DNA from: Candidatus Nomurabacteria bacterium
GTDB lineage: Bacteria; Patescibacteriota; Minisyncoccia; Phycocordibacterales; UBA9973
Assembly: GCA_029288805.1 (NCBI GenBank)
Contig: JARIGO010000008.1
Coordinates: 3,894-67,893, forward strand
DNA length: 64,000 nucleotides
Direction: 5' to 3'
Shown here: piece after piece, positions 11,673-59,619 of the stretch
How positions within the stretch are numbered: the stretch's first letter is position 1
Layout: the number at the start of each line of letters is the position of its first letter
Translations under genes and position numbers: made by a program
The notes under the pieces: model-generated
Databases searched by the model: none
The model's input: the letters and a program-made list of their open reading frames with translations, nothing else
What the model was told of the DNA's origin: nothing

Positions 11673-12113
11673 ATGAAGAAACAATTGCAACCTATAGACG
11701 CAGAAGCAGTGCTTCAGGAATACGGATTCAAGAAAACCCCATTGAGAATACTGCTCTTGGAAGTGCTTTCACTTTCCCCTACTCCTCTGCCGGTAGCCAA
11801 GCTGGCGCGTAAGACAAAAAAGGTTGGCGCGGACACAGCAACGCTATACCGAGCCCTTCATGCATTTGTTGAAGCGGGGTTGGTTATAGAACTGATGGTA
11901 GACAAAACGAAGAGCTTGTACGAGCTTAGCCAGTCAAAGGGCCACATGCATCACATTGTCTGCGACACCTGCAGTACTGTTGAGTCCATTCCATTTTGCA
12001 TTAAAAGCATTGATAAGCAGGTTGTAGAATATTCGAAACAGTTCAAGAAGATTCACAGCCATCAGCTGGCATTTGTTGGGACTTGCAGAAAATGCCTTCG
12101 CGCGGTACGGTAA
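11673..12113 (+). CDS. Fur-family transcriptional regulator (probably Zur)
   Basis: N-terminal winged-helix region LRILLLEVL...ATLYRALHAFVEAG, metal-site residues HMHHIVCDTC...C..C. Divergent from zupT. Confidence 0.75.
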   Translation: MKKQLQPIDAEAVLQEYGFKKTPLRILLLEVLSLSPTPLPVAKLARKTKKVGADTATLYRALHAFVEAGLVIELMVDKTKSLYELSQSKGHMHHIVCDTCSTVESIPFCIKSIDKQVVEYSKQFKKIHSHQLAFVGTCRKCLRAVR

Positions 12114-13255: not shown

Positions 13256-13885
13256 TTAATATAACAACAATACTTTTTCTATAGCCAAAGCCAATGGTGT
13301 TCCCTCCCTCCAAGCAGAAGCATGCGCCTCAAGCATTTTTGTATACAACGTATGATACTGCCCATTAATATCTTTTTCTTTTAATGCCATATCGCGCACC
13401 TTCCAATAGAACATGCCGAGAATAGCTTCGATAGGATATTGTTCGATAGCTTTGTTGTATGCCAGCCAACGATCTTTTTTATTTTGTACTGTAATGAGTG
13501 AGGTTACGCCAAATAGATTTCCCTTATCTGCCGCCGGCTTCTTTTGAACATCATCAAGATGAACTTCTACCCCCTGTTTTTTTAATGACGTAATAAAAGG
13601 TTTGGAAAGTGACAGTTCTTCGAAAATAAATATAGTCGGACTAGCCATTAGCTTTCTCATCAGCACAGGCGAAAGATCTTTTTCCTTGTTATCAAGTATG
13701 AAGCGAGTGTGCACAATCGGAGCGTTCAATGTGAACAGAGATGGATAGAGATACTGCTCAAGATCAGCCACAGTACTCAATGTGTCATCAAGCATGATGA
13801 CTTCACTGTCTCCATATGTTCGAATCATTTCGGCAATGCGAGCAGCGCGAAACGGTTTGGTGTCAGCAACAACAATAGTAAGCAT
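13256..13885 (-). CDS. hypothetical protein (possibly DNA polymerase III delta subunit-like)
   Basis: No firm motif. Clamp-loader context (next to polA, coupled to the upstream gene) and size suggest a HolA-like role. Weak. Confidence 0.3.
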   Translation of the reverse strand: MLTIVVADTKPFRAARIAEMIRTYGDSEVIMLDDTLSTVADLEQYLYPSLFTLNAPIVHTRFILDNKEKDLSPVLMRKLMASPTIFIFEELSLSKPFITSLKKQGVEVHLDDVQKKPAADKGNLFGVTSLITVQNKKDRWLAYNKAIEQYPIEAILGMFYWKVRDMALKEKDINGQYHTLYTKMLEAHASAWREGTPLALAIEKVLLLY

Positions 13886-14337
13886 TATAAAATCTTCGGT
13901 ACTTCTTCCTTATAATCCGTGTACTCAACTCCGTATTCGCGGTGAAGTAATGACTCGTATATTTTGAAAAATGAATTTGAGACAATGTATCCTATCAAGG
14001 TCACTGCAAGAAATACGATGGAGCCACTGACAGCCGTATAACCAGCAACAAGCAGCATGATACCGATGTGTGTTGGGTTACGCATGTATCTGTATGGGCC
14101 TCGCTCAAAATACGGCTTTTCATTTTTCTTGGCAGAAGTACCCTGTGCCCACCAAATAAGCAGTGAACCGAGAATGAAACAGACGATAGCAATAGTGTCG
14201 CCGTAGCGCAAAGGAACATTAAATCCAAAAAATGTGTCAGCAAAAAGTCCAAGCAGGCTAAAGACAAAATATGCCAAATATGAATGCGCCAACACCATAT
14301 GAATGGTAGGTCGCTGTTTCTTTGCTGTTGGTTCCAT
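13885..14337 (-). CDS. isoprenylcysteine carboxyl methyltransferase (ICMT/PEMT) family membrane methyltransferase
   Basis: YRYMRNPTHIG is the RNPxYxG motif. Multi-TM protein. Confidence 0.65.
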   Translation of the reverse strand: MEPTAKKQRPTIHMVLAHSYLAYFVFSLLGLFADTFFGFNVPLRYGDTIAIVCFILGSLLIWWAQGTSAKKNEKPYFERGPYRYMRNPTHIGIMLLVAGYTAVSGSIVFLAVTLIGYIVSNSFFKIYESLLHREYGVEYTDYKEEVPKIL

Positions 14338-25089: not shown

Positions 25090-25579
25090 TACCGAACAAA
25101 CCATTCTGGCTGTCGATCCTGGATATGATCGTTGCGGGGTAGCCATTATAAAAACTGGCCCACATCCAATCATTGAAAAGTCCTGGTGCATTACGACGAA
25201 CAAAAAGGACGTGCAGCCTCATCGCCTGGCAGCCATCTTCAAGAATATTGATGAAGCTATTACCGAATACAAACCTGATGCCATTGCACTCGAAACACTG
25301 TTTTTTTCAGTTAACAAAAAGACTGTCATCGGCGTAGCGGAAGCTCGCGGTATCATTGTGACGCTTGCAGGGCTGCACGACATTGAACTCATAGAACTTT
25401 CTCCGCAAGAAGTGAAGATTGCCGTTACTGGGGTTGGCAACGCAGACAAAACTGCAGTACAGAAAATGGTAGCCCTGACGCTGAAAATTGATATTGCGAA
25501 AAAATTGGACGATGAAATCGACGCTATTGCACTGGGAGTAGCAGCAGCCGGTACTTTGCGATTAAACTCTTATAAATAA
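25079..25579 (+). CDS. ruvC: crossover junction endodeoxyribonuclease RuvC
   Basis: ILAVDPGYDRCGVAII N-terminus and RuvC-family size. Confidence 0.85.
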   Translation: MKNNTEQTILAVDPGYDRCGVAIIKTGPHPIIEKSWCITTNKKDVQPHRLAAIFKNIDEAITEYKPDAIALETLFFSVNKKTVIGVAEARGIIVTLAGLHDIELIELSPQEVKIAVTGVGNADKTAVQKMVALTLKIDIAKKLDDEIDAIALGVAAAGTLRLNSYK

Positions 25580-25660
25580 AGGCAAAAAATCGCTTGCCAA
25601 CTTTAGTAGTATTTGATACAACTTAAGGCATAAAAATTAATTTTATTTTTGCACCATAGT

Positions 25661-25882
25661 ATGGATGAAAACGAAAAAGAAGTATTGGACGAATCTGAAC
25701 TTGCTGAAGGATTCAGTGAGGTAGGTGATGATGGAGACATCATTGCTGATGACGAAGTGTTAGTTGAAGATGAGCCGCTTCTTGATGAAGAAGATAAGAG
25801 CGAAGATGACGCAGAGGAAGAAGACGACATGAAGGCATACTTGGAAGAAAGCCTTTATGAAGCAGAAGATCTGAGATACTAA
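25661..25882 (+). CDS. small highly acidic hypothetical protein
   Basis: About 45% Asp/Glu (DDGDIIADDEVLVEDEPLLDEEDKSEDDAEEEDD). Followed by a strong terminator. Confidence 0.45.
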   Translation: MDENEKEVLDESELAEGFSEVGDDGDIIADDEVLVEDEPLLDEEDKSEDDAEEEDDMKAYLEESLYEAEDLRY

Positions 25883-25885
25883 TAA

Positions 25886-25915
25886 AAAATGCCCACCGAC
25901 GGTGGGCATTTTTAT
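25886..25915. terminator. bidirectional rho-independent terminator
   Basis: aaaaaatgcccaccg-acg-gtgggcattttta between convergent genes. Confidence 0.6.
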
Positions 25916-26022: not shown

Positions 26023-26463
26023 CTACACCGCTTGCGTTTCCCTCTTCAGCGTACACTTCTCACATCTGCAGCCTTTTGGCTTGATGTATTCGTTGAAGAA
26101 ATCTTTTCCATAGTCATAGAAAAGTTCTTCTCCGGGCTTGATATTTCGCTTTGCATAAATAAAGACTCGCCCCTTGATGATGTCCACCTCACAGTTTTGC
26201 TTGCTGCACACATGGTTGATATATCGCGCAGTGTTCCACCGTACTGATCCATCAATAGTTTTTTTCTTAGAAACCTCGAAGAGGTATTGCCCCCCGCGGG
26301 CATTTACTTCATCATCCGTAGTGAGAATGTCTCCAACGTATTCGATGATACAGTCGCCTTTTTTTATTGGCACCGTAGTGAACAATCCGAGACCATTAAT
26401 TCCTTTCTTAACTTTCAAATCTGTTCCAACTGCGTAGAGTGGAGTGGTTTTTGTTGCTGACAT
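26023..26463 (-). CDS. SET-domain protein (putative protein lysine methyltransferase)
   Basis: GLGLFTTVPIKKGDCIIEYVGDIL, NHVCSKQNCEV (NHSC-like), GEELFYDYG, and a Cys-rich post-SET CRCEKC. Confidence 0.75.
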   Translation of the reverse strand: MSATKTTPLYAVGTDLKVKKGINGLGLFTTVPIKKGDCIIEYVGDILTTDDEVNARGGQYLFEVSKKKTIDGSVRWNTARYINHVCSKQNCEVDIIKGRVFIYAKRNIKPGEELFYDYGKDFFNEYIKPKGCRCEKCTLKRETQAV

Positions 26464-32455: not shown

Positions 32456-33553
32456 TTAGCGGTTGGTTGGCATTAGGAGATAGAGGAAGGAAGTATCACT
32501 GACGCTCTTAACCACGATTGGCTTATTGGGCTGTGTAAATGAGATTACGACACTATCGCCTGACAAAGCCTGAAAGACATCAAGAAAATACTTAAGGTTA
32601 AAATCAACTTCAATAGGACTGCCTTCAATTGCGGCAGAAACTTCTGAAATAGATGAACCGACATCACTGTTTTTTGAACTCAATGTAATGTGTTTTTTGT
32701 CTTCAGGAATTGCAAATGATACTTGGAAAAATTTGTCTGCAAAAATGGTAGAGAGTCGAAGCGTATTGAGGAGTTCCTGTTTCAAAAGCACAACCTTTGT
32801 CAGTGTTTCCTTGGGAATAATAAGCTGATATGGCGGAAATCCACCGTCAATCAATCGGGATGTGAGATACAAACCATTTGCAATAAATGCAATCTGATTA
32901 CGGCTATAGATAATACGAATAGTTTCAGGAGCAGTGTCGAGTACTCGCAAGATATCGGCAATATTCTTAAAAGGAATCAATATCTTTGAAATTTCCGGAA
33001 TGCCCTTAACACTGATTTTCTTTTCCGCTAGACGAAATGAGTCTGTAGCGACAAATACCAAGGTGTTTTCTTCTGTGTACATAAAGATACTAGCAATTTC
33101 AGGCTTAATATCAGTGACAGCAGCACAGAAATAAACGGAACGAATGCCTTCTTGTAAAACACTGGTCTTTATTTCGATCTGTTCCCCATCGACTACTGGT
33201 AACGTAGGGAATTCATCCGGCGGCAAGCATTTGATAACTGTAGTGTTGTGAGCACTTTCAATAGTGAGGTTGTCGTGACTAAGTGAAAGTCGCACCTCAC
33301 TTGCATCACTAAGATGGTTACAAACATTCGCTAGTATTTCCCCCTTCACCAAAACCAATCCTTCAGCTTCAATCTTTGCTGGAATTTCTATTTCTATTCC
33401 TAGAGTAAGATTGGTAGCGCGAATCTTAAGACTATTTCCTGTAGCAGTTAACAGCAATGCGTGCAGTGTCGGAAGTGTAAGAGCTTTCCCTGTCATTCTC
33501 TCGGCTAGTCCGACTGCGTTTTTCAACTTTTCTGTTGTACATACTATATTCAT
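32456..33553 (-). CDS. dnaN: DNA polymerase III beta sliding clamp
   Basis: Three-domain clamp layout, N-terminus MNIVCTTEKLKNAVG. Position directly downstream of dnaA. Confidence 0.85.
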   Translation of the reverse strand: MNIVCTTEKLKNAVGLAERMTGKALTLPTLHALLLTATGNSLKIRATNLTLGIEIEIPAKIEAEGLVLVKGEILANVCNHLSDASEVRLSLSHDNLTIESAHNTTVIKCLPPDEFPTLPVVDGEQIEIKTSVLQEGIRSVYFCAAVTDIKPEIASIFMYTEENTLVFVATDSFRLAEKKISVKGIPEISKILIPFKNIADILRVLDTAPETIRIIYSRNQIAFIANGLYLTSRLIDGGFPPYQLIIPKETLTKVVLLKQELLNTLRLSTIFADKFFQVSFAIPEDKKHITLSSKNSDVGSSISEVSAAIEGSPIEVDFNLKYFLDVFQALSGDSVVISFTQPNKPIVVKSVSDTSFLYLLMPTNR

Positions 33554-33740: not shown

Positions 33741-35105
33741 TTATTTAAACATAATGCGGATATCCTCCAGTTCTTTCATGAGGTGAGGGTCGGTTCCTAG
33801 TTCCCCTTTTATTTTTTCATAGGAGTGAATAACTGTCGTATGGTCCTTTCCTCCTAACTTTGCACCAATAGACGGGTATGACTCGTTAAAGTCTTCACGA
33901 AGAACGAACATAATGATCTGGCGAGCTCGAACAATTTCCTTTCGTCGAGTTTTTTCGTAAATCACCTCTTCGTTAAGGTTGTAGTATTCAGAAACAATCT
34001 TTACTACAGAATCAATAGAGATAACCTTCTTCGGCTTAACGTTGTTTTTGATAAGCACCTTTATGTCAGCAAGGCTGATGGACTTCTGACGCATGCCTGA
34101 ATGCATGTTTATAAGGTTTAGAATGCCTTCTAGTTCTCGAATACTACCTGTAACAGATGATGCAATATAAAAAAGTACGTCTGGTTCTATTGGAAACGCC
34201 AACTGACCACTCTTTTCCTTGATAATAGCCATGCGTGATTCCATGTCAGGCTCTTGAACATCAATAGTCATACCGGCATTGAAGCGAGTCTTTAGGCGGT
34301 CTTCTAGACCAACGATGTGATTAGGGTGTTTATCTGATGAAAATACAATGTTTTTTCCTTGGTCGTACAGGTTGTTGAAGGTATGGAACAATGCATCCTG
34401 CGTACCCTGCTTTCCTGATATGAATTGAATATCATCCATAATAAGAACATCAAACTTGCGATACTTATCCTGGAACAATTGTTGTCTATTGTTTTGAACG
34501 GAAGACACATATTCGTTCATAAATTTCTCAAGACTGGTGTATAGCACTCGTTTTTCTGGATACATGCGCTTTATTTCATTACCAATAGCTTGTATAAGGT
34601 GTGTCTTACCAAGGCCACTTGCACCATAAATAAATAGAGGGTTATATGCGTTCTGAGGACGCTTTACCACTGATTGTGCAGCAGCATATGCAAGCTCGTT
34701 AAAGGGACCAACTACGAAACGATCAAAGGTGTATCGCGGATTGAGGTTGTCGTCTCTATTTATATAAACGTCTTGCAATGGAAGACCTGATGATTGGTCT
34801 GAAGTAGTGCTAAATAGAGTATCAACAGTAGTAGGTGCTGCTGCAGGGGTAGGAAGGCTGGTGATGACGTACTCGACGGCACGGATATGGTTGGCATTAT
34901 CAACAATGCTCTTAAGAATTATTTTATTGAACTTTGTCATCAACCATTCACGAACGAATTCATTCGGTACGCCGATGTAAATAACCCCCTCTTCTTCCTT
35001 GATGATGCCTGTGTTTCTAAACCACGTAGTAAAAGTAGCCTTTGTGAGCTGTGATTCAATCACGCCCAGACAAGTATTCCAAAGTTGAGTGAGGTTGCTT
35101 TCCAT
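33741..35105 (-). CDS. dnaA: chromosomal replication initiator protein DnaA
   Basis: AAA+ Walker A GASGLGKTHLIQAIGNE and a C-terminal DNA-binding domain. Confidence 0.9.
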   Translation of the reverse strand: MESNLTQLWNTCLGVIESQLTKATFTTWFRNTGIIKEEEGVIYIGVPNEFVREWLMTKFNKIILKSIVDNANHIRAVEYVITSLPTPAAAPTTVDTLFSTTSDQSSGLPLQDVYINRDDNLNPRYTFDRFVVGPFNELAYAAAQSVVKRPQNAYNPLFIYGASGLGKTHLIQAIGNEIKRMYPEKRVLYTSLEKFMNEYVSSVQNNRQQLFQDKYRKFDVLIMDDIQFISGKQGTQDALFHTFNNLYDQGKNIVFSSDKHPNHIVGLEDRLKTRFNAGMTIDVQEPDMESRMAIIKEKSGQLAFPIEPDVLFYIASSVTGSIRELEGILNLINMHSGMRQKSISLADIKVLIKNNVKPKKVISIDSVVKIVSEYYNLNEEVIYEKTRRKEIVRARQIIMFVLREDFNESYPSIGAKLGGKDHTTVIHSYEKIKGELGTDPHLMKELEDIRIMFK

Positions 35106-35959: not shown

Positions 35960-36673
35960 ATGATTACCCTTTGGAATATAATTATTTACCAGCCTATCTA
36001 CAACGCACTTATCTTTATTGCTCAGCATGTTACTGGTAAAGATGTCGGCTTGGCCGTTATAGTCCTTACTATCGTTATTCGTCTCATTCTCTTCCCTCTC
36101 AGTAAGAAAAGTATTGTTGGCCAGTACAAAATGAAGGCATTGGAACCAAAACTCCAAGCGCTCAAAAACAAAGGACTTTCCAAAGAAGAAGAGGCTCAGG
36201 CCACCTTTGCGTTGTATAAGGAATATAAAATAAACCCTTTTTCAGGTTGCTTGTATATCATTATCCAACTCCCTATTCTTCTTGCCCTCTCTCTCTGTTT
36301 TACTCACGGCGTCAGCCAGCCAACTCATCTCTATCATTTCTTGAGCACAGACGGTCTTAAGAGTACTTTCCTTGGCGTTGTTAACATTACCAAACCATTC
36401 TTCTGGTTTGCATTGCTTGCTGGTATTACACAGGCTATTCAGGCCTTTCTTGCCCCACAGCCTATTCCTGCCGGAAGTTCAAATGACACAAACATGCAGA
36501 CACAATTGGCGAAAAGTCTTTCTGTTCAGACCAAGTACATCCTCCCTGTCATTATCGTTATTATCGCCTCTCGCTTGGCTTCAGCGGTTTCTATCTATTG
36601 GGCAATGGCAAACATCTTCTCTATTCTCCAGGAATTATATTTGCGCAAAACAGTACGAAGCAAATTGGCTTAG
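35960..36673 (+). CDS. yidC: YidC/Oxa1-family membrane protein insertase (short form)
   Basis: IIYQPIYNALIFIA...LAVIVLTIVIRLILFPL is the conserved YidC TM core. Sits in the rpmH-rnpA-yidD-yidC cluster. Confidence 0.85.
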   Translation: MITLWNIIIYQPIYNALIFIAQHVTGKDVGLAVIVLTIVIRLILFPLSKKSIVGQYKMKALEPKLQALKNKGLSKEEEAQATFALYKEYKINPFSGCLYIIIQLPILLALSLCFTHGVSQPTHLYHFLSTDGLKSTFLGVVNITKPFFWFALLAGITQAIQAFLAPQPIPAGSSNDTNMQTQLAKSLSVQTKYILPVIIVIIASRLASAVSIYWAMANIFSILQELYLRKTVRSKLA

Positions 36674-37908
36674 TACGCGTAGCTCCACAAGAATCCTGTA
36701 TTCTTATCAATGAAATACACAATGCGCTGACCTTCGTCGACTTGGATGTTCGTCATATCAAATGATGCGTCACTGCCATCATAGACTGTGGTGTAGGTAT
36801 TGTTTGAAGGGTCTATTTCATACAGCTGGTCAGAAAAATGCATAGTTCCCTGATACCAATCGTCAGGATATGTCCCGCTAGGCACGCTAGTGTTTCCTGC
36901 ACACATAAGGTCTTCATTTTGAAGCCAAGTGCATTTTTCAGGGAGAATATTTAAATTGATAGAGCTTGTAACATTGGTCTTTGTATTAAAAAGTTCCGTA
37001 TTAAAACCTGTTGCAGTACTTTGTGAATATAGTACGTAGGTGCCGCTTGGACTGACTGATGTAGTCATACCTGCTATGTCTCCCAAAACACGCTGCAGTC
37101 TCGCTGCTGACGTAATAGTGTATAAGAAGCCGTTTGCCACTGAAGCGGCTTTTGTTTGTAGGTATACGGCATTAGTAGTCCATTGTGGAAGCCATTCCAG
37201 GAATGGTGAATGAGTTAATGTTTTTACACTACCTCCTATACTGCTAGACGTACTAACAGAAGCGCCGGTCTTGTCATTTATAATGCGAACTATATGGCTT
37301 TGGTCAGGAGAAACAGCGAGAGCGGTTATATTGTCAGGAAGATATATGCCTGGTATCTGCGTACGAGTGCCGTCTGGGTTTAATGCAGGAACTGGAATGC
37401 TGTATGTAGCAATGGTCTTTTGATCATCACGCAAAAAACGCAAAATGGCAGTGCTATTGGCGTCTGCAAACATGGCTTCATAGACGTTTGGAATGAAGAC
37501 GTTGGTGATCTGTGTGGCAGAAGAGCCGTTTTTGATTTCATACACGTATCCATTGGTTCGAGAAACGTAGCGAATATAATGGTCAGTCGTGGTCTTCACA
37601 TCTACAGTCGGCTTCCCGGACACTGTGGACGGAACAGAAACTTGGTTAACGAGCGAAAAGAGCGTATAGCCCGCTATAGGATGGGCGGTGATTTCCCTTA
37701 ATGCAGAAGTCGTTGAATTGTTTGTTACCGTACCAGTAGAATTATCGATGTTCAGTATGTTTGAACTGCTTGTCGTAGCCTTGGGAAAGAAAGAGGTCAC
37801 TACCTTTGGAATAGGCGCATTGGTCTGCTCTCGTGGACGAACATAGAAATACCATACTCCTGCCCACACAAGAACGATGACGAGTAAGATAATGAAGATG
37901 CGACGCAT
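36670..37908 (-). CDS. hypothetical N-terminally membrane-anchored protein, possibly beta-propeller-like ectodomain
   Basis: N-terminal TM helix IFIILLVIVLVWAGVWYFYV. Ser/Thr-rich. No catalytic motif recognised. Confidence 0.45.
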   Translation of the reverse strand: MRRIFIILLVIVLVWAGVWYFYVRPREQTNAPIPKVVTSFFPKATTSSSNILNIDNSTGTVTNNSTTSALREITAHPIAGYTLFSLVNQVSVPSTVSGKPTVDVKTTTDHYIRYVSRTNGYVYEIKNGSSATQITNVFIPNVYEAMFADANSTAILRFLRDDQKTIATYSIPVPALNPDGTRTQIPGIYLPDNITALAVSPDQSHIVRIINDKTGASVSTSSSIGGSVKTLTHSPFLEWLPQWTTNAVYLQTKAASVANGFLYTITSAARLQRVLGDIAGMTTSVSPSGTYVLYSQSTATGFNTELFNTKTNVTSSINLNILPEKCTWLQNEDLMCAGNTSVPSGTYPDDWYQGTMHFSDQLYEIDPSNNTYTTVYDGSDASFDMTNIQVDEGQRIVYFIDKNTGFLWSYAY

Positions 37909-37933: not shown

Positions 37934-39631
37934 TTATCTACCATCAATTGACCAGTGCCACGCTTCCTTTGCAAAGTTTTTAAAACCATATGTTGCCGCA
38001 TTATTTTGTAACCATATAAAACAGGGACTACTGTGTGAGCTGATAGCATCCTTGTCTTCATTGCAAACAAAATCAAACGCCAATCCACTTTCGTGATTTG
38101 AATGACCAACCGGTGCTGTTGGAGGGTTACAACTTGCATTTGGGGTATATAAATCACCATTACAATGTTTCTTTCTAAGAGCTGTTTGTTCAGCTGCCGT
38201 TCTGAATCCTCCACCGGTTAATTTTATACCAGCTCCATACGCTGCTTTCAGCATATTTTGTAAATTGGTAGCGACCGGTATTCCTTTATAGTTTGAACAT
38301 GCTACAAAACTTGATTTTTGTACCGTTACTCTGGTTATTCCTGCTGTACAAGCACCTGCCGCACCACTTGTCGGAGCGCCTGTGTTTTGTATTAAAGGTG
38401 TGGTATCAGTATCAGGTGCTGTTACCCCAATCGCCAGCTGTTGCACATTCACGGTTTCATTTACGAGCTTTGGATTTATAGTATTTAAAATAATGTAAGA
38501 AGTCAGGACTAACAATAAGCCCATCAATGAAGTAAAAAATTGACCCTTTGCGTTCGCCTTCTTGAATGGAAGGTCTGTGGTCATGTACTCGAAGCCTACA
38601 TACATTAGTCGAAGCACTAGAATTACACCGGTTATACCTATAAGAATTTGAATAGCTAAGTTTAGATAGTCATTAAAGCTACATTTTGGAGGTGTTTTTC
38701 CAGCTGCCTGCGCCTGTTGTTGCTCTTGAGCACAGACGTCAGGGTCTGGGAAGATAGTGCTTTTGCTTGGATCTGAAAGGAATGTATATACGTTTGGGTT
38801 TAAATTTTGCCCCGCACCAGAGCCGGAATTAGCAGAAGATGGGACAAAAGCTGTTGCTCCTGTTGAACCGTCAAAGCTTTGAATTTTTCCTTTAATGGAA
38901 TTATTAGCATTCAGCACCAATGTCTGTTGCATGTAATATGTCGTATTTGGCTGTATACCTGGTAAAACCCACCAATAAGTACCAGCAGGATCATCTTGAG
39001 AAACGTCTTCACCATTTGGGCCTTTTCCGTCACTAATACCGTTAGGGCTTCCAACAGTGGCGTATGCAAGGCTTGGTATACCCGACTGTATAGGATTTGA
39101 AAGGTCAGGAGACTTAGAATATGTTAAATATGCATGATAATCTTGATAGTTCTTCTGCTTAATCGGGTCTATAAAACCTTTAATATTTGCGTACGAGTCT
39201 TCTATGTCTACGCTGAGGTCATTGTAATAAACAGTAAAAGGAGTAGTTTTTACTGTTTGCGAAGGAGTTACGTATGAAGCAGATGATATTAGGTTCTGAG
39301 GAATTTCCGCGACTCGAATATAATAAGTCGTATTAGGGTTATATCCGCTCAACGACCAATGCAACGTGGCTGGCTTTCCAGAACTTGCGGCACTTGATTG
39401 TTGAATGGTAGGGTCTGTCGTTCCAGGGATTGATGTTGTTGACCCTGTATACGTACCACTAGTGAACTGAGTAGGTTGTACCACCAATTGGTATTTGTCA
39501 GCGTTAGTAACTCCACTCAAGGAAGCCGTAATAGTGGTTATTCCTGTTGAGGCGGTAAGTGTTAGGGCGGCAAATGTACGACTTACAAGCAGCAAGCTAA
39601 ATAGGATACTGAAAAACAGTATTTTTTTCAT
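37934..39631 (-). CDS. secreted multidomain protein: FN3-like N-terminal modules, two central hydrophobic helices, C-terminal M15 (VanY/D-Ala-D-Ala carboxypeptidase-like) zinc peptidase domain
   Basis: Signal peptide. C-terminal HSNHESGLAFDF (SxHxxGxAxD) and EAWHW motifs. Hydrophobic LAIQILIGITGVILVLRLMYVGF and LMGLLLVLTSYIIL. Confidence 0.6.
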   Translation of the reverse strand: MKKILFFSILFSLLLVSRTFAALTLTASTGITTITASLSGVTNADKYQLVVQPTQFTSGTYTGSTTSIPGTTDPTIQQSSAASSGKPATLHWSLSGYNPNTTYYIRVAEIPQNLISSASYVTPSQTVKTTPFTVYYNDLSVDIEDSYANIKGFIDPIKQKNYQDYHAYLTYSKSPDLSNPIQSGIPSLAYATVGSPNGISDGKGPNGEDVSQDDPAGTYWWVLPGIQPNTTYYMQQTLVLNANNSIKGKIQSFDGSTGATAFVPSSANSGSGAGQNLNPNVYTFLSDPSKSTIFPDPDVCAQEQQQAQAAGKTPPKCSFNDYLNLAIQILIGITGVILVLRLMYVGFEYMTTDLPFKKANAKGQFFTSLMGLLLVLTSYIILNTINPKLVNETVNVQQLAIGVTAPDTDTTPLIQNTGAPTSGAAGACTAGITRVTVQKSSFVACSNYKGIPVATNLQNMLKAAYGAGIKLTGGGFRTAAEQTALRKKHCNGDLYTPNASCNPPTAPVGHSNHESGLAFDFVCNEDKDAISSHSSPCFIWLQNNAATYGFKNFAKEAWHWSIDGR

Positions 39632-40611: not shown

Positions 40612-42417
40612 TTATGCGCGTTGTTGTTGACTAAATTCCTGCTTCGCCTTTTGAATAGAGATAACCTGAGATGGGTCGGAGGTAATAATCTGGTCTTCAG
40701 TATATGAAGCGATAATTTTGATGGCCACGTGTTTCAAGCCAGCAAAGAAGATGCCTTCCCCTACTCCGGATTCAAGCAAAAGATATTTTTCCTCATCAGT
40801 GAGGTTGAATGTTTTTTGCAATACGTCCATTGTTGATGGAGACTGCTTCAACAGCAACTGAATGGAAGAGTTTGTAATAATAGGCACTCCGTATGGGCTC
40901 TTCATGAAGTCACCAACGTCTTGAGTGATGGTACAGAGACCGAGGTAATACTTACGTCCTCGCTTGGCAATGGAATACAGGAACGACGCCGTATCTTCTG
41001 ACTTCATCATCCACCATGCCTCGTCCACTACCAAAAGACGTTTTTTAAGCTCTTTACGCACAGCATTCCAAATAAAGTGTGTAACGATATACATCGCTGC
41101 CGGTTTCAAGTCGTCTTCCATGTCTCGTACAGAGAACACCACGAATTTCTTATTAATATCAACGTTGGTTGGCTGGTTGATGAAGCTTGCCCATGATCCA
41201 TGCGTGTATTTCGTAAGACGTTGCAAGATAGAATCAGTTCCCTCCATACCGGAAAGTACCATTTCAAAGTCTGAAAGCAATGGTGGTTCAATGGTGCTGA
41301 AATCAGAGTCGGCCGTAATGTCTTTCAATGAATATGTTTCTGTAATAGCGCGGTCAATCAGTGAGTCTTCTTCTGGCGACAAACCTCCAAGCATGATGCG
41401 AAACAGTCCCACCAAGTTGATGATGTTACTTCGAAGCACGTCTGCAGATGACTCGTCTTCTCGTGGAATAGGAAGATCAAATGGGTTGATGTGGTGGTCT
41501 GAAGAAAGTGAAATATTAAAATATCGTCCCCCTACCGCTTCGGCCAGGTATTCGTATTCTCGCTCTGGGTCAATAACCAATACGTCGGTATCAAACATCA
41601 GTGTACGAATGATTTCCAGTTTCGTAGCATAACTTTTTCCGGCACCAGACTTTGCGAAGATAATAGAGTTGTAGTTTTCAAGACTGAAGCGATCAAAGAT
41701 AACTAAACTTGAGTTGTGGCGATTAACGCCGTATAGGATGCCCGTTTCACTAGTAAGATCAAATGACACGAATGGAAACATGCTAGAAATTGGCTCAGAG
41801 TTTAACTTCTGGGTGACTTGTAGTTTGTCTGTACCAAGCGGAGCAACTGTCTTAAATCCATCCTCTTCCTGGAAAAGACTTGGCTTGATATAGATCAGTT
41901 TTGACTCAAGCATGGACTTGATCTCACTTTCCGCGCGAAAGAGGTCGGTATCGTTGTCGGCGTAGATAGTGATATACATGCCCACATCAAACATTTTTTC
42001 CTGAGCCTGGGTAAGGTTGTCTCGAAGTTCCTCTAGGTCTTCACGAGCAGTATCAAGCATCGGGTCACGTACCAAACCTTTTTGTTGGCGCACAATGATC
42101 TGGCTTTCCACTTCGGCAATTTTCTTTTGGAAATGTTTCAGCAGTTCCGCTGTTTCAATCGGGTTGATGTAAATGGCAATGTCAAAAATCTTATCAAGAT
42201 TGATGATTGGAGTGAGCCAGTTGTCGGTAAGGTAGCGAGGATATGAAATGACAAAAAACGTTCGGACTATTTTGTCGCCGATACGCATTGATTTTGGGGT
42301 GATCTCGATGGCGGAAGGGGCAATCTTGTCTGAGAGATCCATGCTCTCCCATTCTTCTACTTGTGAAGATGAAATCGGTAAGAGACTTTCTTTGTCTGCC
42401 ATGCCTATAGTATACAC
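40612..42417 (-). CDS. VirB4/TrbE/CagE-family type IV secretion ATPase, C-terminal ~600-aa portion (domain CagE_TrbE_VirB + ATPase)
   Basis: IVRTFFVISYPRYLTDNWLTPIIN, Walker A FAKSGAGKSYATK, Walker B LLVVDEAWWMM. The first in-frame start after the TAA is GTG at 42415-42417, and the first in-frame ATG is at 42400-42402. Confidence 0.75.
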   Translation of the reverse strand: MYTIGMADKESLLPISSSQVEEWESMDLSDKIAPSAIEITPKSMRIGDKIVRTFFVISYPRYLTDNWLTPIINLDKIFDIAIYINPIETAELLKHFQKKIAEVESQIIVRQQKGLVRDPMLDTAREDLEELRDNLTQAQEKMFDVGMYITIYADNDTDLFRAESEIKSMLESKLIYIKPSLFQEEDGFKTVAPLGTDKLQVTQKLNSEPISSMFPFVSFDLTSETGILYGVNRHNSSLVIFDRFSLENYNSIIFAKSGAGKSYATKLEIIRTLMFDTDVLVIDPEREYEYLAEAVGGRYFNISLSSDHHINPFDLPIPREDESSADVLRSNIINLVGLFRIMLGGLSPEEDSLIDRAITETYSLKDITADSDFSTIEPPLLSDFEMVLSGMEGTDSILQRLTKYTHGSWASFINQPTNVDINKKFVVFSVRDMEDDLKPAAMYIVTHFIWNAVRKELKKRLLVVDEAWWMMKSEDTASFLYSIAKRGRKYYLGLCTITQDVGDFMKSPYGVPIITNSSIQLLLKQSPSTMDVLQKTFNLTDEEKYLLLESGVGEGIFFAGLKHVAIKIIASYTEDQIITSDPSQVISIQKAKQEFSQQQRA

Positions 42418-42429
42418 TAGTGTTGCTAT

Positions 42430-43062
42430 TTATTGACTTGATTGCGTACTTGTTTCTCCCGGGTTGAACGTTTTATACAACACCTCGATGACTTCTTGCG
42501 TGCCAAGTTGTACCAATCGCAAGCCTACGCCTGACAGGCCCTGCTCTACCACACTGACGCGCTGCTCAAGCTGCGTGCGCTCCTCTTCGAAGTTGCTAAC
42601 TGTTTCGTTTCCTACCGGAGTCTTTTTAAGGAATGAGAAAAATTTCCCAACGCCGCTGTTTTGGGCAAGTACTGGCGGAATGTATGGGATAACTACAAAG
42701 AATGACTTGCGCATAATGTTCACCTGTTCGGTAAATGTCTGAATAAACTGGATGTATTCACGGGTCTGTACCTGCAATAGCTGCTCGGTTTGTTCCTTGA
42801 GACGGTTTTCTAGCGTTAAAATATAAGGGCGAATGTCGTATCGACGAGATTGAATAACGATTTCAATGGGAAAATCAATGGTATTAAGAAAGTTTTGAAA
42901 TTGAGCCAGGGTTGCACGCTGCTCATCATATGACTTCAAGCTGAGGTTGATGGAAGACACCAATACAACGGTACACAAAGTGCCGTCTTTTAGTACAACG
43001 ATGCCATCGCGCACTTCTTGTACTGGAACGAATTGTTGGGCTGGGGTGCCAATTGTAGCCAT
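42430..43062 (-). CDS. VirB4-like N-terminal ~210-aa fragment (same frame as downstream ATPase, separated by one TAA)
   Basis: VQEVRDGIVVLKDGTLCTVVLVSSINLSLKSYDEQRATLAQFQNFLNTIDFPIEIV parallels the VirB4/TrbE N-terminus (compare the Agrobacterium VirB4 HIVLLEDGS...AFELEE...FN.LL region). Both ORFs' lower coordinates are congruent mod 3. Confidence 0.6.
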   Translation of the reverse strand: MATIGTPAQQFVPVQEVRDGIVVLKDGTLCTVVLVSSINLSLKSYDEQRATLAQFQNFLNTIDFPIEIVIQSRRYDIRPYILTLENRLKEQTEQLLQVQTREYIQFIQTFTEQVNIMRKSFFVVIPYIPPVLAQNSGVGKFFSFLKKTPVGNETVSNFEEERTQLEQRVSVVEQGLSGVGLRLVQLGTQEVIEVLYKTFNPGETSTQSSQ

Positions 43063-43063
43063 G

Positions 43064-43507
43064 TTATTTTTTGGAGCCGATGACGTCCAAACTCCACGAA
43101 AGAGTGTTAAGATTGCTTCCGTTCATTGTAGCACGGTTATTTGTTGCAGCGGGTGATGTCTTTGTGTCGCTGGTAAGAATAGGACTGACAATTCTTTTTT
43201 CAACAGGCTGTTTTTTTGAAACGACAGGTGCCTGCTTGTGCCACAGATACAGTCGAGAGCGAGAGTAGTATCGAATGAATGATTCAACGACGTTAACAAA
43301 CGGCTTGTCATTGTACTTCATGAATGCCAATGCCAATGCGAAACCAACGATTGCTGGTCCTACAAATATGGAGATATACACAGGGAGCATTTTGAATGCC
43401 AAATATCCAAAGCCCGCTCCCCCAGCCAAGTATGCAAACTGCTTAAAAGTAAGCGGTCCAAATACCTTGTCTTCAATATCGATAAATTGTGGCACTTTGA
43501 ATTGCAT
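43064..43507 (-). CDS. VirB3/PrgI-like small membrane protein
   Basis: Two TM helices (FAYLAGGAGFGYLAFKMLPVYISIFVGPAIVGFALALAF) immediately upstream of the VirB4 gene, the canonical VirB3 position. Confidence 0.55.
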   Translation of the reverse strand: MQFKVPQFIDIEDKVFGPLTFKQFAYLAGGAGFGYLAFKMLPVYISIFVGPAIVGFALALAFMKYNDKPFVNVVESFIRYYSRSRLYLWHKQAPVVSKKQPVEKRIVSPILTSDTKTSPAATNNRATMNGSNLNTLSWSLDVIGSKK

Positions 43508-44018: not shown

Positions 44019-47000
44019 TTATTTTGATTCTTCGCCCTTAGCTTTTTTCTTTTGATCTTCTCTATACTTTGAAATATCCCCCCAGATTTTTTGATGCTTT
44101 TCAGCCTCTTCAATTTCTCGGAATGTAGCCCAATATTTTTTGGTGGCGACAAGGTCGCCTGATGCCATACCTGTTCTTTGACGTTTTAGTTCTTTTTTGA
44201 GTTCACCCATATTATAACGGCTTTGCTCAACCACTTGTACTTGATGTTCTATTTTCTCTCGGCTTGCCTTATCTGCCTGCAATGCTATTCGTTCTGCATC
44301 TACAGCTGCTTGCTCATCCGGCTCCAATAGGTCATAAAGTTTCTTGCCTTTGTATGCACCTGTTTGGACTTTACCTGTATTAAAGAGCTCCTCCCTTTCT
44401 AGAGGGGTGAGGACGTTAAGCCCGTTACTATTAGCAAATTTCTGCGTAGCAATAAGGTTGGTAAAACCATTTTTGAGAGTTTCTTCTATCTTCTCAAGTT
44501 CTTTTTGTGCCTTGCTTCGCTCTTCTATTTTTTTAGATGCTCTTTTACTTCCTTCTGCTCTGACTTCGCTACCAATTGCAGCACCCACCGTAGCTCTCAA
44601 TAGGCCCGCTACTGCGGCACCTTCTTGCCCTTGCTGACCAAGCCAGTTTAATCCTTGTGTGATAGGGCCGCCGGTCTTAAGGTTGTCGGCATATTTCTTT
44701 CTGCGGCTACTCGTTAACTCTTCTGCTGTAGCAACGGTCTTAGGAGCCTCAATATTATTGATGGTAGTTTGGGTGTTGGTATTTGTTAATGCTTGGGTTC
44801 TGTACTCATTATAAATTGTAGGATCAGGGTTTTCCTTGTTGTCTCGCGCAGTCTTTGCCGCATCAATTTGTGCCTGAGTGCGGCCATCTGCAAGCATTTG
44901 AGCTTCAAGTACCTTCTCAATTTTCTTATCGTACTTTTTCTTAACTTTTTCATTGTATGCCTTAATGTTTTCTCCATTTTTCTCTTCAAGAAGTTTTTCG
45001 TCTGCTACCTGGCGCTCTTCTCGGCGTTTTATATCTGCCTCTCTTCCCCCCTTACGCTGATCTACTCCGAGTCCCAACCCAATCCCCGCAAGAGCATTAA
45101 GAGACTTTTGATTAGTGTTTATTCCCAACTGTTTAAATAGGGCACTTCCTGCTGTTGTCTGCCTAACATCGAATGATCCTGATCGAGTAGCGTTTATCCC
45201 CTTTTGTAATGTTCTGCCGATACCACCAAAATATTTATTTGCTGCTAAGTTTCTTATACCTACGCCAACATTAGACTCATCGACTCGTTTTGCCAAGCCC
45301 CCGACCACTCGACCCCCGACCAATGCTGCACCGCCAGTTGCTGCCCCAACGGCAAAACCGGTTATAGTATTTCCAAACGATTGAATGGATTTTCCAATAT
45401 CACCCGAAAGTCTTTCAGCGGTTTTTCTTGCTGCGTCAATGAGGAAATAAATGATAGCCATAGGAATAGCTATAGCCATAATTGTTCCAAAGATACTTCC
45501 GTTTGAAGTATTTGCTACACCAATGTCTTGAACAAAACTACTCGTAAGAACTACGTAGATTATATAAAGGAAAAATATAAAAACCGGAGCGAGCATGGCA
45601 TAGTTGGCAAGTTCGCTTGACCAGTCTGTCCATCGCAATCGCTCAACCTTGCTAAGCATTGGTATGTTTTGACTAAGGAAGGCAAATGGGGAAAATATCA
45701 TACATATGTAAAGACCGACTACTCTTCCCACAAAGAGAAATGCAACCTTAAAGAACATTATAGCTATTGCTAGCATGATAAAGGTGGCAACTATGCATAT
45801 GATTCCAAAATAAATAGCTTCGTCATTTGCGGAAAGAGGTTTCTGTGTAGGGGCTGATGTTGGGGAGCTGGTGAGAGCGCCTGTTAGGGTGCCATAGTTC
45901 GGTGTTTGAAGAACGTTGGTGGTAAATATTTTTTGCGGATTAAAGGATGAAATTATCTTTTCTGAAAGAGGCCAGTATCCTCCAAGACTCCGCTTAACTT
46001 GAGCAGGAGGGCAAGTATTCGTTGTGGGGTCGATACTTGCCTGATCGCAGACAACCATCTGGCTATAGAACACTCGGGCTGTAACATTCGAGATATCAAT
46101 GACAATGCGTGTTGCGAAGAGACTAAAATTGATAAGTAATGCGTTAATAATAATATTCGGCACCACCTGCTTCATTGAGGATTTGCTGGTGTTGAATACA
46201 GCTGAAAATCCGGTATATACCAAAATAATAATGAAGAATATATTTGAAATATCTCGAACCAGCTTCCATCCTGTTACTGCGAATGCGTAACGATATGAAG
46301 CATCACTCACCGAGTATCCGATAAAAAAGTCAAAAAGCTGCCCAAGCAATCCTGCTATCCACGCAGCAAGGTTGTAAATACCATATGCTGCTTGTGCTAA
46401 GCAACCGTTAAAAGTCCCACTAATAGGATGGCTTATAGCACACTCCGGTAACCCGTCGTCATCCGTAGACGAAGAGGTTTGAGTTTGGGCAAGTGTCTGC
46501 TGGGATGTTGCGGCTTGCTGTTGGAGTGTAGTAGCATCAGTCGGTATAGTAATGGGAAGAGGTGATCCAATTTGGAAAAAACTCGCTCCCCCGCATACGC
46601 TGCCAAAGGTTGCTGGATTTGTCGTTGCAATCTTATTGCTTTGGTACGTAGATACAGCATCTGAACCGTCACCTGTAGCGCAATACCACAAACTGGCGGT
46701 TAAAGAGTCTCCTTGTTTAAAAGAGATGTTACTAACACTGCTGGCTGTATTCGCGCTAGGATTATATGTATATACATTTGAACCATCTGCCGCAAAGGCG
46801 CTAACAGGAACTGTTAGGTTGTCGACATAGTTACCCTCAGTACTTTTGGCGTAGATAAAAAGTTTATCATTTCCTGGATTTGGATCTTTAAGGTCAAAAA
46901 GAACAGTGTTAAGCCAGCAGTTATTTGTATTACTATTTTCACATACCTGAATAACAAAATTTTGAGTGCTATTCTTCTCTACCTTGTCCCAGTGCGCCTC

Positions 47001-47303
47001 ATCAGTATCACCATTTCCTGATAAGGCAATTTTTAAGTTAATGGTAAAAGCAAGTCCTTGGACGGTATTTGTGGCTGTTGATTTTTGAATGGTCCCGCCT
47101 GAAATACCACTGCCTGAGGAAAAGTTATTTATATAAGTAGCATACTGAGCATCGAGATTTGCTTTTGTGAGAGGGTTTGCCGCAAAAATCCTTATTGGGC
47201 TGAGTAAGAAAGCAGTACCAATCAATGCAAGCGCTGTTAAAGCTATCGTTTTATTCAAACGAGAAAAAATAGTTTTTATGCGACGAAAGAGACGTGCGGA
47301 CAC
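44019..47303 (-). CDS. very large polytopic membrane protein, VirB6/TrbL-like, with N-terminal ectodomain and long charged C-terminal tail
   Basis: Signal peptide plus about 300-aa ectodomain. At least 6 TM helices (e.g. YFGIICIVATFIMLAIAIMFFKVAFLFVG). Gly-rich GFAVGAATGGAALVGG. C-terminal Lys/Glu-rich coiled-coil-like tail. Confidence 0.55.
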   Translation of the reverse strand: MSARLFRRIKTIFSRLNKTIALTALALIGTAFLLSPIRIFAANPLTKANLDAQYATYINNFSSGSGISGGTIQKSTATNTVQGLAFTINLKIALSGNGDTDEAHWDKVEKNSTQNFVIQVCENSNTNNCWLNTVLFDLKDPNPGNDKLFIYAKSTEGNYVDNLTVPVSAFAADGSNVYTYNPSANTASSVSNISFKQGDSLTASLWYCATGDGSDAVSTYQSNKIATTNPATFGSVCGGASFFQIGSPLPITIPTDATTLQQQAATSQQTLAQTQTSSSTDDDGLPECAISHPISGTFNGCLAQAAYGIYNLAAWIAGLLGQLFDFFIGYSVSDASYRYAFAVTGWKLVRDISNIFFIIILVYTGFSAVFNTSKSSMKQVVPNIIINALLINFSLFATRIVIDISNVTARVFYSQMVVCDQASIDPTTNTCPPAQVKRSLGGYWPLSEKIISSFNPQKIFTTNVLQTPNYGTLTGALTSSPTSAPTQKPLSANDEAIYFGIICIVATFIMLAIAIMFFKVAFLFVGRVVGLYICMIFSPFAFLSQNIPMLSKVERLRWTDWSSELANYAMLAPVFIFFLYIIYVVLTSSFVQDIGVANTSNGSIFGTIMAIAIPMAIIYFLIDAARKTAERLSGDIGKSIQSFGNTITGFAVGAATGGAALVGGRVVGGLAKRVDESNVGVGIRNLAANKYFGGIGRTLQKGINATRSGSFDVRQTTAGSALFKQLGINTNQKSLNALAGIGLGLGVDQRKGGREADIKRREERQVADEKLLEEKNGENIKAYNEKVKKKYDKKIEKVLEAQMLADGRTQAQIDAAKTARDNKENPDPTIYNEYRTQALTNTNTQTTINNIEAPKTVATAEELTSSRRKKYADNLKTGGPITQGLNWLGQQGQEGAAVAGLLRATVGAAIGSEVRAEGSKRASKKIEERSKAQKELEKIEETLKNGFTNLIATQKFANSNGLNVLTPLEREELFNTGKVQTGAYKGKKLYDLLEPDEQAAVDAERIALQADKASREKIEHQVQVVEQSRYNMGELKKELKRQRTGMASGDLVATKKYWATFREIEEAEKHQKIWGDISKYREDQKKKAKGEESK

Positions 47304-50794: not shown

Positions 50795-51688
50795 TTATGA
50801 CGATAGTATACCGTATTTTACAAGATAATCATGTAGATTATAAAAAGCCTGGCTACCTCTTGAGTTGTATGTCTTGTAGAGTGCCACACCAACAAGCGCC
50901 TCTGTTCCATTGTCGGACATTTGCTGAAGGTATGGGAAGGATGCCGCCATGCCAGCAAAGCCATTGATAATGTCCAAGTCATACTGTGCTACCCCTATCG
51001 GAACATTGATTTTACTGATTTGCTGGGCCATAGCAGTATAGTCAGCGCCCGTTTGGGTAAGTTCCGGAAGTTGGCTGTAGTCTCCTGTTTCCGCAGCATT
51101 AATAATGACGGTAATATCCGCATCGTCTTGATTGTACTTGCCAATAATATCACTAAGATTGTTGTAGTATTTTGTCAGTGAGGTCGAACTGGTTGTAACA
51201 GTGTGAATATCCTTGAGTGAATAAGTATTACTTACTGAGGATACGTTTATAGATGAACCAAGCTGGTTGGCCACGTTTTGCAGTGTTGTGTCGTCGACGT
51301 TGCCATTTTGACTTAGTGCGCTAGTGATGCTGAAAAGTTGTTGGGCCAATGCATCGGTTTCATTGGTCGGCGTCCCGGTTGTGTCATCCGTTACCCCAAG
51401 AGCCAATTTCTTTTCTTTGATAATCTCAGCGTTTGATTTTCCGTTTGTGTAAAGAACTGTTGGATCAAGTCCCCACAGTGTTTCTTCCCAGTCAGGAATA
51501 CCGTTGCCGTTTGAGTCTTTTGAAGTGATATCCCCCACTGTAAGGCTTTTTTGAGTAGTAGCTGTTTTTTTCTTATGAAAAAGATTGCCAAACCATTTAG
51601 TCTGTACTCCTAAGATGATAAGGATAAGTAGTACCACTAACCCTCCGCGAATGAGAAATTGTTTACTAGGACGAAATGATTCAGCCAT
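50795..51688 (-). CDS. membrane-anchored hypothetical protein (VirB8-position candidate) with a Ca-binding-like DxNxNG motif
   Basis: N-terminal TM helix LVVLLILIILGV. DSNGNGIPDWEE motif. Role is inference only. Confidence 0.45.
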   Translation of the reverse strand: MAESFRPSKQFLIRGGLVVLLILIILGVQTKWFGNLFHKKKTATTQKSLTVGDITSKDSNGNGIPDWEETLWGLDPTVLYTNGKSNAEIIKEKKLALGVTDDTTGTPTNETDALAQQLFSITSALSQNGNVDDTTLQNVANQLGSSINVSSVSNTYSLKDIHTVTTSSTSLTKYYNNLSDIIGKYNQDDADITVIINAAETGDYSQLPELTQTGADYTAMAQQISKINVPIGVAQYDLDIINGFAGMAASFPYLQQMSDNGTEALVGVALYKTYNSRGSQAFYNLHDYLVKYGILSS

Positions 51689-59109: not shown

Positions 59110-59619
59110 TTAATATCCAATTAAGTACTTCTTTGGATTGGTTGAAAGGTCTACGAAGTCATCAACAACTTCCTTTAATGAAGCTGAGGCTGACTGTCCA
59201 AATGTTGCAGCTTCTACTTGCACGCCATGGTGGTATCGCAAATACTCACACAATGGTACGAAGTCTCCATCACCTGAAACTATGATAATAGCGTCGAGCT
59301 TAGGAGCCATTGATACTGCGTCGATGGCAAGTCCAATATCCCAGTCTGCCTTTTTGCTTCCGTCATAAAAAATCTGCAAGTCTTTTGATCGTGTCTCAAT
59401 CCCCGCCTTTGTTAGTGCGCTCAAAAATGCTTTTTCATCGCCGTTTTCCGTAGTGATAACATATGCGATGGAGCGGATTAATGTTCGTCCACACAAAAGA
59501 TCCTTCACTACGTTTCCGAAGTTCACCTTTCTTTTATAAATATTTTTTGCAGTGTGGTAGAGGTTTTGCGCATCTATGAAAATTCCCACACGCTGATCCT
59601 TTTGTTTAATTACTGCCAT
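59110..59619 (-). CDS. NYN-domain (LabA/DUF88-like) protein
   Basis: VGIFIDAQNLYH...DAIIIVSGDGDFVPL are the PIN-like acidic motifs of NYN domains. Confidence 0.7.
   Translation of the reverse strand: MAVIKQKDQRVGIFIDAQNLYHTAKNIYKRKVNFGNVVKDLLCGRTLIRSIAYVITTENGDEKAFLSALTKAGIETRSKDLQIFYDGSKKADWDIGLAIDAVSMAPKLDAIIIVSGDGDFVPLCEYLRYHHGVQVEAATFGQSASASLKEVVDDFVDLSTNPKKYLIGY

Follow-up and report, generated by a model that had tools for sequence, protein, structure and literature searches.

Canonical VirB4-family ATPases of type IV secretion systems (T4SS), represented by VirB4, TrwK and TraC, are single chains of ~800 amino acids (aa). A two-gene arrangement has been published for Patescibacteria by Quinonero-Coronel et al. 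2025 (PMC12102498), who identified 2,272 homologues of TrsD in this phylum, 1,664 of them encoded beside virB4. In that study TrsD was remotely homologous to the VirB4 N-terminus, and its homologues were the commonest T4SS component in Patescibacteria; the Gracilibacteria homologues were an exception to the association with virB4. The Patescibacteria T4SS clusters were often found near dnaA, and fusion of VirB3 to VirB4, a known variation of the opposite kind, was not seen. Citing Wang et al. 2023, the authors noted that a TrsD homologue is essential in Ca. S. epibionticum, and Wang et al. 2023 (PMC10633639) found the T4SS cluster of Ca. Southlakia epibionticum (SEML1_0006-0019) to be essential. 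Here we examine a pair of this type in a 64,000-nucleotide (nt) stretch of a Candidatus Nomurabacteria bacterium genome (assembly GCA_029288805.1, contig JARIGO010000008.1, positions 3,894 to 67,893), referred to below as the window. The window carries a gene for a 210-aa TrsD-like protein followed by a gene for a VirB4-family ATPase. These are very probably two real, separately translated genes of a chromosomal Patescibacteria T4SS related to the Gram-positive MPF-FATA class, which jointly supply one VirB4.

The locus resembles the Patescibacteria-clade T4SS of the two studies cited above in every respect that we compared. It is chromosomal, lies beside dnaA in a Paceibacteria/Nomurabacteria-type host, has adjacent PrgI/VirB3-like, TrsD-like and virB4 genes, and carries pilin-like and peptidase genes downstream. 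We see no substantive difference and regard the window as a further instance of this arrangement. What we add is small: the position of the gene boundary, which we map to a variable linker of VirB4, and a sub-clade-specific –10-like element in the spacer between the two genes.

A comparable gene order is present on Gram-positive plasmids of the pGO1/pSK41 subclass of MPF-FATA systems, with which we take pIP501 to be grouped. On pSK41 of Staphylococcus aureus, a gene for a 135-aa protein (25492..25899) is followed by trsD (227 aa), trsE (a 672-aa DUF87/VirB4 protein), a gene for a membrane protein and one for a CHAP hydrolase. The order in the window is PrgI, the 210-aa gene, the ATPase, a 319-aa open reading frame (ORF) and a VanY peptidase. 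Both systems thus share a small gene, a TrsD of ~200-230 aa, a VirB4 of ~600-670 aa and, after these, a membrane protein and a cell-wall hydrolase. They differ in that the small Patescibacteria protein is only remotely similar in sequence, the hydrolase is a VanY/M15 peptidase instead of a CHAP protein, and the Patescibacteria system has a chromosomal location and no obvious role in conjugation. Relative to the canonical single-chain proteins, the window encodes a colinear whole with Walker A and Walker B motifs present, but the polypeptide is divided at a linker after the first ~200 residues.

Two adjacent genes encode complementary parts of one VirB4

Both genes are on the minus strand. The 210-aa ORF (43062..42430) ends in ...TSTQSSQ, with its TAA stop at 42432..42430. 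Beyond the TAA, the frame reads on as ATA GCA ACA CTA GTG TAT ACT ATA GGC ATG (I A T L V Y T I G M), and a 601-aa ORF that opens at GTG 42417 and stops at 40612..40614 continues in this frame, with the lone TAA between the two. Our reading of the sequence thus agrees with a first-pass annotation of this DNA, which had described two same-strand, same-frame ORFs parted by one TAA at 42430-42432. That annotation gave the downstream ORF as 601 aa; its stop at 40612 stands, and its start is better moved. The most likely start of the ATPase is ATG 42402, which yields a 596-aa product (40612..42402). The first residues of this product, MADKESLLPISS, line up with the starts of orthologues, and the public gene call for the contig has exactly a 210-aa and a 596-aa product. 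GTG 42417 was rejected as a start on these two grounds. With ATG 42402 as the start, a spacer of 27 nt (42403..42429) separates the two genes.

The relation of the two products to a single VirB4 was seen in their alignment with a fused VirB4 of 797 aa (P0259, from the MBI3088895.1 cluster), which occurs in three metagenome-assembled genomes (MAGs) of Candidatus Colwellbacteria. Residues 1-202 of the 210-aa protein align with residues 1-210 of P0259, and residues 23-588 of the ATPase align with its residues 230-796 at 53% identity. The two pieces add up to 806 aa and are colinear with P0259 along its whole length, the gene boundary corresponding to a variable linker of ~20 aa in the fused protein. 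In a second fused VirB4 (P0255, 898 aa) the linker is ~110 aa long, of low complexity and rich in Pro and Ala, and lies exactly at the gene boundary of the other genomes. Because both pieces align colinearly with P0259, the two window genes are complementary parts of one VirB4, and the split lies within its N-terminal region, at a linker between domains. Full-length fused VirB4s such as P0259 and P0255 are rare within Patescibacteria, and may be either ancestral or secondary re-fusions.

Profile searches divided the protein at the same place. The 210-aa protein matches the NCBIfam model VirB4_plasma, which describes the mycoplasma VirB4, at profile positions 106-282 (E = 2.9e-12), and the ATPase matches it at positions 286-893. 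Likewise, the NCBIfam VirB4 model conju_CD1110 is matched by the 210-aa protein at positions 2-116 and by the ATPase at positions 174-733 only (381.3 bits, cutoff 325). These matches and the alignment to P0259 bear out the earlier assignment of the upstream piece to the VirB4 N-terminal region. The downstream piece had been assigned both the Walker A/B ATPase and the CagE_TrbE_VirB region. The former holds: Walker A (GAGKS, 41632..41646) and Walker B (LLVVDEAW, 41014..41037) both lie within the downstream ORF, and among Pfam models the ATPase matches P-loop_TraG at 90.7 bits (cutoff 25.8), together with AAA_10 and DUF87. The latter does not, as the Pfam scan gave no match to PF03135 (CagE_TrbE_VirB). 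The product is thus a VirB4-family ATPase by its motifs and by curated VirB4/TraG-type models scoring above their cutoffs. It is not a single ~800-aa polypeptide with a complete N-terminal domain, the first ~200 residues being encoded by the separate upstream gene. It consists of the second half of the N-terminal region and the P-loop domain, and is 71-97% identical to its counterparts in Patescibacteria relatives with complete ATPase genes.

The 210-aa protein is a remote relative of TrsD

By its position the 210-aa protein is of TrsD/TraD type, as it is a protein of ~200 aa encoded between VirB3-like and VirB4 genes, next to an ATPase that is devoid of the corresponding N-terminal segment. 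Its residues 14-125 match positions 21-142 of the NCBIfam TrsD/TraD model NF041427 (E = 5.9e-7). The partner ATPases also correspond: the window ATPase aligns from residue 22 with pSK41 TrsE from residue 33 onward (25% identity, E = 2e-37), so that the two ATPases begin at a common boundary. This common split point agrees with published work that derives the T4SS of Patescibacteria from monoderm MPF-FATA conjugation machinery. We base the link to TrsD on the NCBIfam hidden Markov model, on synteny and on the common ATPase boundary.

The best 120 of 7342 database homologues of the 210-aa protein are all 205-218 aa long and 76-100% identical to it, and all of them, as well as an identical database protein (P0001), bear the precomputed Pfam assignment PF26593.2 (TraC-like). 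An exhaustive search of representatives clustered at 50% identity yielded 2128 relatives; the best 150 of these are nearly all short and stand-alone, with the length of a fused VirB4 reached by two (797 and 898 aa). Roughly 35 of the same 150 are 300-440 aa long (e.g. P0132, P0143, P0157, P0158, P0166, P0180 and P0239), and in these an additional C-terminal extension of 100-230 aa follows the conserved N-terminal domain.

Several results weigh against the assignment of the 210-aa protein to TrsD and to the VirB4 N-terminal fold, and against its role as a subunit of the motor. The score with NF041427 is 29.5 bits, far under the family cutoff of 200, and the comparison of a profile of the 210-aa protein with pSK41 TrsD by hhalign was insignificant (probability 3.9%). 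Because of these two results we call the kinship with TrsD remote homology only. A local Pfam-A scan assigned the 210-aa protein to no family at E ≤ 0.01, PF26593 presumably being absent from that copy of the database. The AlphaFold2 model of the 210-aa protein was moderately confident (pLDDT 62, pTM 0.50). When it was compared by Foldseek with the Protein Data Bank (PDB), the top 14 matches were all TrwK/VirB4 chains of R388, but these matches were weak (E at least 5e-3, TM-score 0.33-0.42). We take the predicted fold similarity as supportive and not decisive. The mutual binding of the 210-aa protein and the ATPase, moreover, is something that we infer. At the sequence level, phmmer matched the 210-aa protein to no PDB entry even at E ≤ 10.

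An alternative reading is that the 210-aa protein derives from a VirB4 N-terminus and acts outside the ATPase assembly, as an independent accessory factor such as a regulator or chaperone. The Gracilibacteria homologues that depart from the association with virB4 (PMC12102498) would fit it, as would the C-terminal extensions of the longer representatives. Set against this are the tight VirB3-TrsD-VirB4 linkage across Patescibacteria and in pSK41, the colinearity with fused VirB4s, in which the same domain belongs to the motor protein, and the reported essentiality of the TrsD homologue along with the rest of the T4SS (PMC12102498). We consider an accessory role unlikely and favor the 210-aa protein as part of a two-gene VirB4.

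The gene boundary is conserved while frame, stop codon and spacer vary

The first-pass annotation had left three readings of the interrupted frame: a nonsense-inactivated pseudogene, a genuinely split VirB4, and a sequencing or assembly error. It had also proposed a comparison of orthologous loci for conservation of the stop. For this comparison we took 80 distinct loci and examined the junction in each; they come from the window itself, from metagenome contigs and from 80 GTDB species-representative genomes, and their N-terminal pieces span 51-92% identity. The small gene ends in a stop and the two genes are separate in 80/80 loci. The stop is TAA in 53, TAG in 24 and TGA in 3. The downstream gene is offset by 0, 1 or 2 nt relative to the frame of the small gene in 22, 26 and 32 loci, respectively. 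The spacer ranges from a 4-nt overlap (–4) to 637 nt (median, 31 nt) and is not conserved as protein sequence among the orthologues. A few relatives have long spacers (L077, 637 nt; L082, 588 nt; L027, 159 nt), which may hold an inserted small gene or element. All close relatives are Nomurabacteria, Paceibacteria or other Patescibacteria MAGs.

Since the frame offset varies across related loci, with 22 of the 80 in frame compared to 26.7 expected, the shared reading frame of the two window genes is a matter of chance. This bears directly on programmed readthrough or recoding of the stop, by which a fused VirB4 (junction SSQ-x-IATLVYTIGMADK) would be made besides the two separate products. The in-frame layout of the window, with one TAA and a short spacer, speaks for such a mechanism. 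Among the orthologues, however, the frame relation is random, numerous in-frame loci have 2-9 stops within the spacer, and some pairs overlap (ATGA) or stand hundreds of nt apart. No conserved readthrough context was seen, the conserved feature of the spacer being a –10-like hexamer. As the frames vary and in-frame spacers often hold several stops, readthrough is not a conserved feature of these loci, and we consider its use in the window very improbable.

Substitution patterns pointed in the same direction. When the window was compared with nine relatives, the small gene showed a nonsynonymous divergence (dN) of 0.065-0.13, compared with 0.03-0.045 in the ATPase. In both genes synonymous sites were saturated (proportion of synonymous differences, pS, 0.7-0.8), and the ratio dN/dS was at most ~0.04 wherever it could be computed. 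By this measure both genes evidently are under strong purifying selection. A recent nonsense mutation to TAA that inactivated a continuous virB4 of ~806 aa, leaving a dead T4SS motor, would account for the common frame with a single stop, and the fused relatives, rare as they are (797 and 898 aa), could be cited in its favor. It does not account for a stop that is present at every locus down to 51% identity, for a downstream gene that lies in another frame in 58 of them, for a spacer not conserved as protein between two halves under strong purifying selection, or for the ~210-aa length kept in the 120 closest database homologues. An error in sequencing or assembly has nothing specific to recommend it beyond the fact that MAG-derived contigs can hold errors, and is contradicted by the recurrence of the gene boundary in independent assemblies, which come from 80 species and many studies, by the public gene call with its two products, and by the conserved non-coding motif in the spacer. 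Because the split is kept in 80 loci and both genes are under purifying selection, we regard these last two readings as virtually excluded, which leaves the genuine split of the three.

The boundary is thus old, and the earlier suggestion that the T4SS motor may be dead or recently inactivated is contradicted by these data. The weight placed on one in-frame TAA, which hinted at readthrough or a recent loss of function, was misleading. The motor in this reduced genome appears from its sequence to be intact and bipartite, as it is across the phylum and in plasmids of the pGO1/pSK41 type. For annotators and for automated scans, the practical consequence is that the trsD-like/virB4 pair of Patescibacteria should not be flagged as a broken virB4.

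A model for the bipartite motor

The model that follows starts from what we observed, namely homologous and colinear pieces, a conserved split, purifying selection and synteny, and extends this to a physical interaction, an anchoring role and a promoter activity, each of which we infer. The 210-aa TrsD-like protein corresponds to residues 1 to ~200 of a full-length VirB4, and the second gene encodes the remainder, i.e. the remaining half of the N-terminal region and the Walker A/B motor. The small protein may bind the ATPase non-covalently. In the inner-membrane complex of R388, the N-terminal domain of VirB4 touches VirB3. By analogy, the small protein, the ATPase and the PrgI/VirB3-like protein could together rebuild the membrane-proximal N-terminal module, and this module might anchor VirB4 hexamers at the base of the channel. 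In the sub-clade that includes the window, the ATPase gene would in addition have its own leaderless-type promoter within the spacer.

A putative promoter element in the spacer

This last element of the model comes from the spacer sequence. Read directly, the 27 nt contain the hexamer TATACT (42409..42414), which ends 6 nt before ATG 42402, and no Shine-Dalgarno (SD) motif. Among the 37 loci whose N-terminal piece is at least 65% identical (the window is one of them), 36 carry the more general hexamer TAYAHT at a distance of 3-14 nt upstream of the ATPase ATG; of 43 more distant loci, 1 does. The two sets also differ in spacer length. Loci at or above 65% have spacers of ~20-60 nt; in the more distant ones, the genes overlap or are 1-12 nt apart (TAAnnATG, ATGA; median 8 nt). 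The near-abutting genes of the distant relatives suggest translational coupling, and the difference at the junction between the clades suggests a switch from such coupling to a separate promoter. From its position and conservation, the motif suggests that the ATPase of this sub-clade has its own leaderless transcript, made from a putative promoter in the spacer.

The same hexamer recurs across the window. TAYAHT, often as TATACT, peaks 6-7 nt before the ATG in 11 of 57 gene-like ORFs. At a distance of 5-11 nt it precedes 13 of the 57 gene starts (23%) compared to 1% of internal ATGs. SD-like tetramers showed no enrichment before the gene starts of the window (3/57). Instances include the hexamers upstream of ORFs at 11673, 13885..14337 (minus strand), 26023..26463 (minus), 36670..37908 (minus), 59110..59619 (minus) and 59989, and a further one at 50803..50811 (minus). 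This pattern suggests widespread leaderless transcription and little use of SD sequences in this Patescibacteria genome.

Against an internal promoter stands a generic sigma-70 scan of the spacer, which found no –35/–10 pair and no –35 element for the proposed promoter. Because of this result, we keep to the word putative for the promoter function. It is possible, and we put it forward tentatively as something short of an even chance, that in the Nomurabacteria-like sub-clade the spacer gained a –10-type element that gives the ATPase a leaderless transcript uncoupled from that of the TrsD-like subunit, as one case of a genome-wide leaderless, SD-less mode of expression not yet described. A search of the literature on leaderless expression in Patescibacteria found nothing relevant. 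If this proposal is true, the uncoupling could permit different amounts of the anchoring N-terminal domain and of the motor.

The surrounding T4SS cluster

The pair is embedded in a T4SS cluster on the minus strand (36670..~51688), which is adjoined on the same strand by dnaA (33741..35105) and dnaN (32456..33553), in agreement with the origin-proximal placement of the T4SS published for some Patescibacteria. A trsD homologue beside virB4, proximity to dnaA and a Patescibacteria host are the marks of the Patescibacteria-clade T4SS, and all three are found here. Directly upstream of the TrsD-like gene (42430..43062) is the gene for a small PrgI-family (VirB3-like) membrane protein (43064..43507, minus strand), whose product scores 41.7 bits against Pfam PF12666 (cutoff 27, E = 1.7e-10). 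A PrgI gene occupies the equivalent position in two relatives (L001 and L003). A large polytopic ORF of 1094 aa (44019..47303), a candidate VirB6, had no Pfam match, nor did the other large ORFs of the cluster (786, 365, 297, 412 and 319 aa), and the Pfam scan of the cluster ORFs showed no relaxase domain.

The virB4 pair is thus clustered with T4SS components on both sides, the second being a 565-aa protein encoded downstream at 37934..39631 (minus strand). This protein has a signal or transmembrane segment at its N-terminus, a pilin-like hydrophobic segment and a C-terminal VanY/M15 peptidase domain (VanY, 45.3 bits; cutoff 25). The T4SS_pilin match of 23.6 bits is under the cutoff of 26.6, and TrbC-like matches were weak and also below cutoff. 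The orthologue in L001 bears Peptidase_M15_4. Judged from these domains, the 565-aa protein may be a cell-wall hydrolase analogous to VirB1, possibly in the form of a fusion of a pilin-like segment with a hydrolase.

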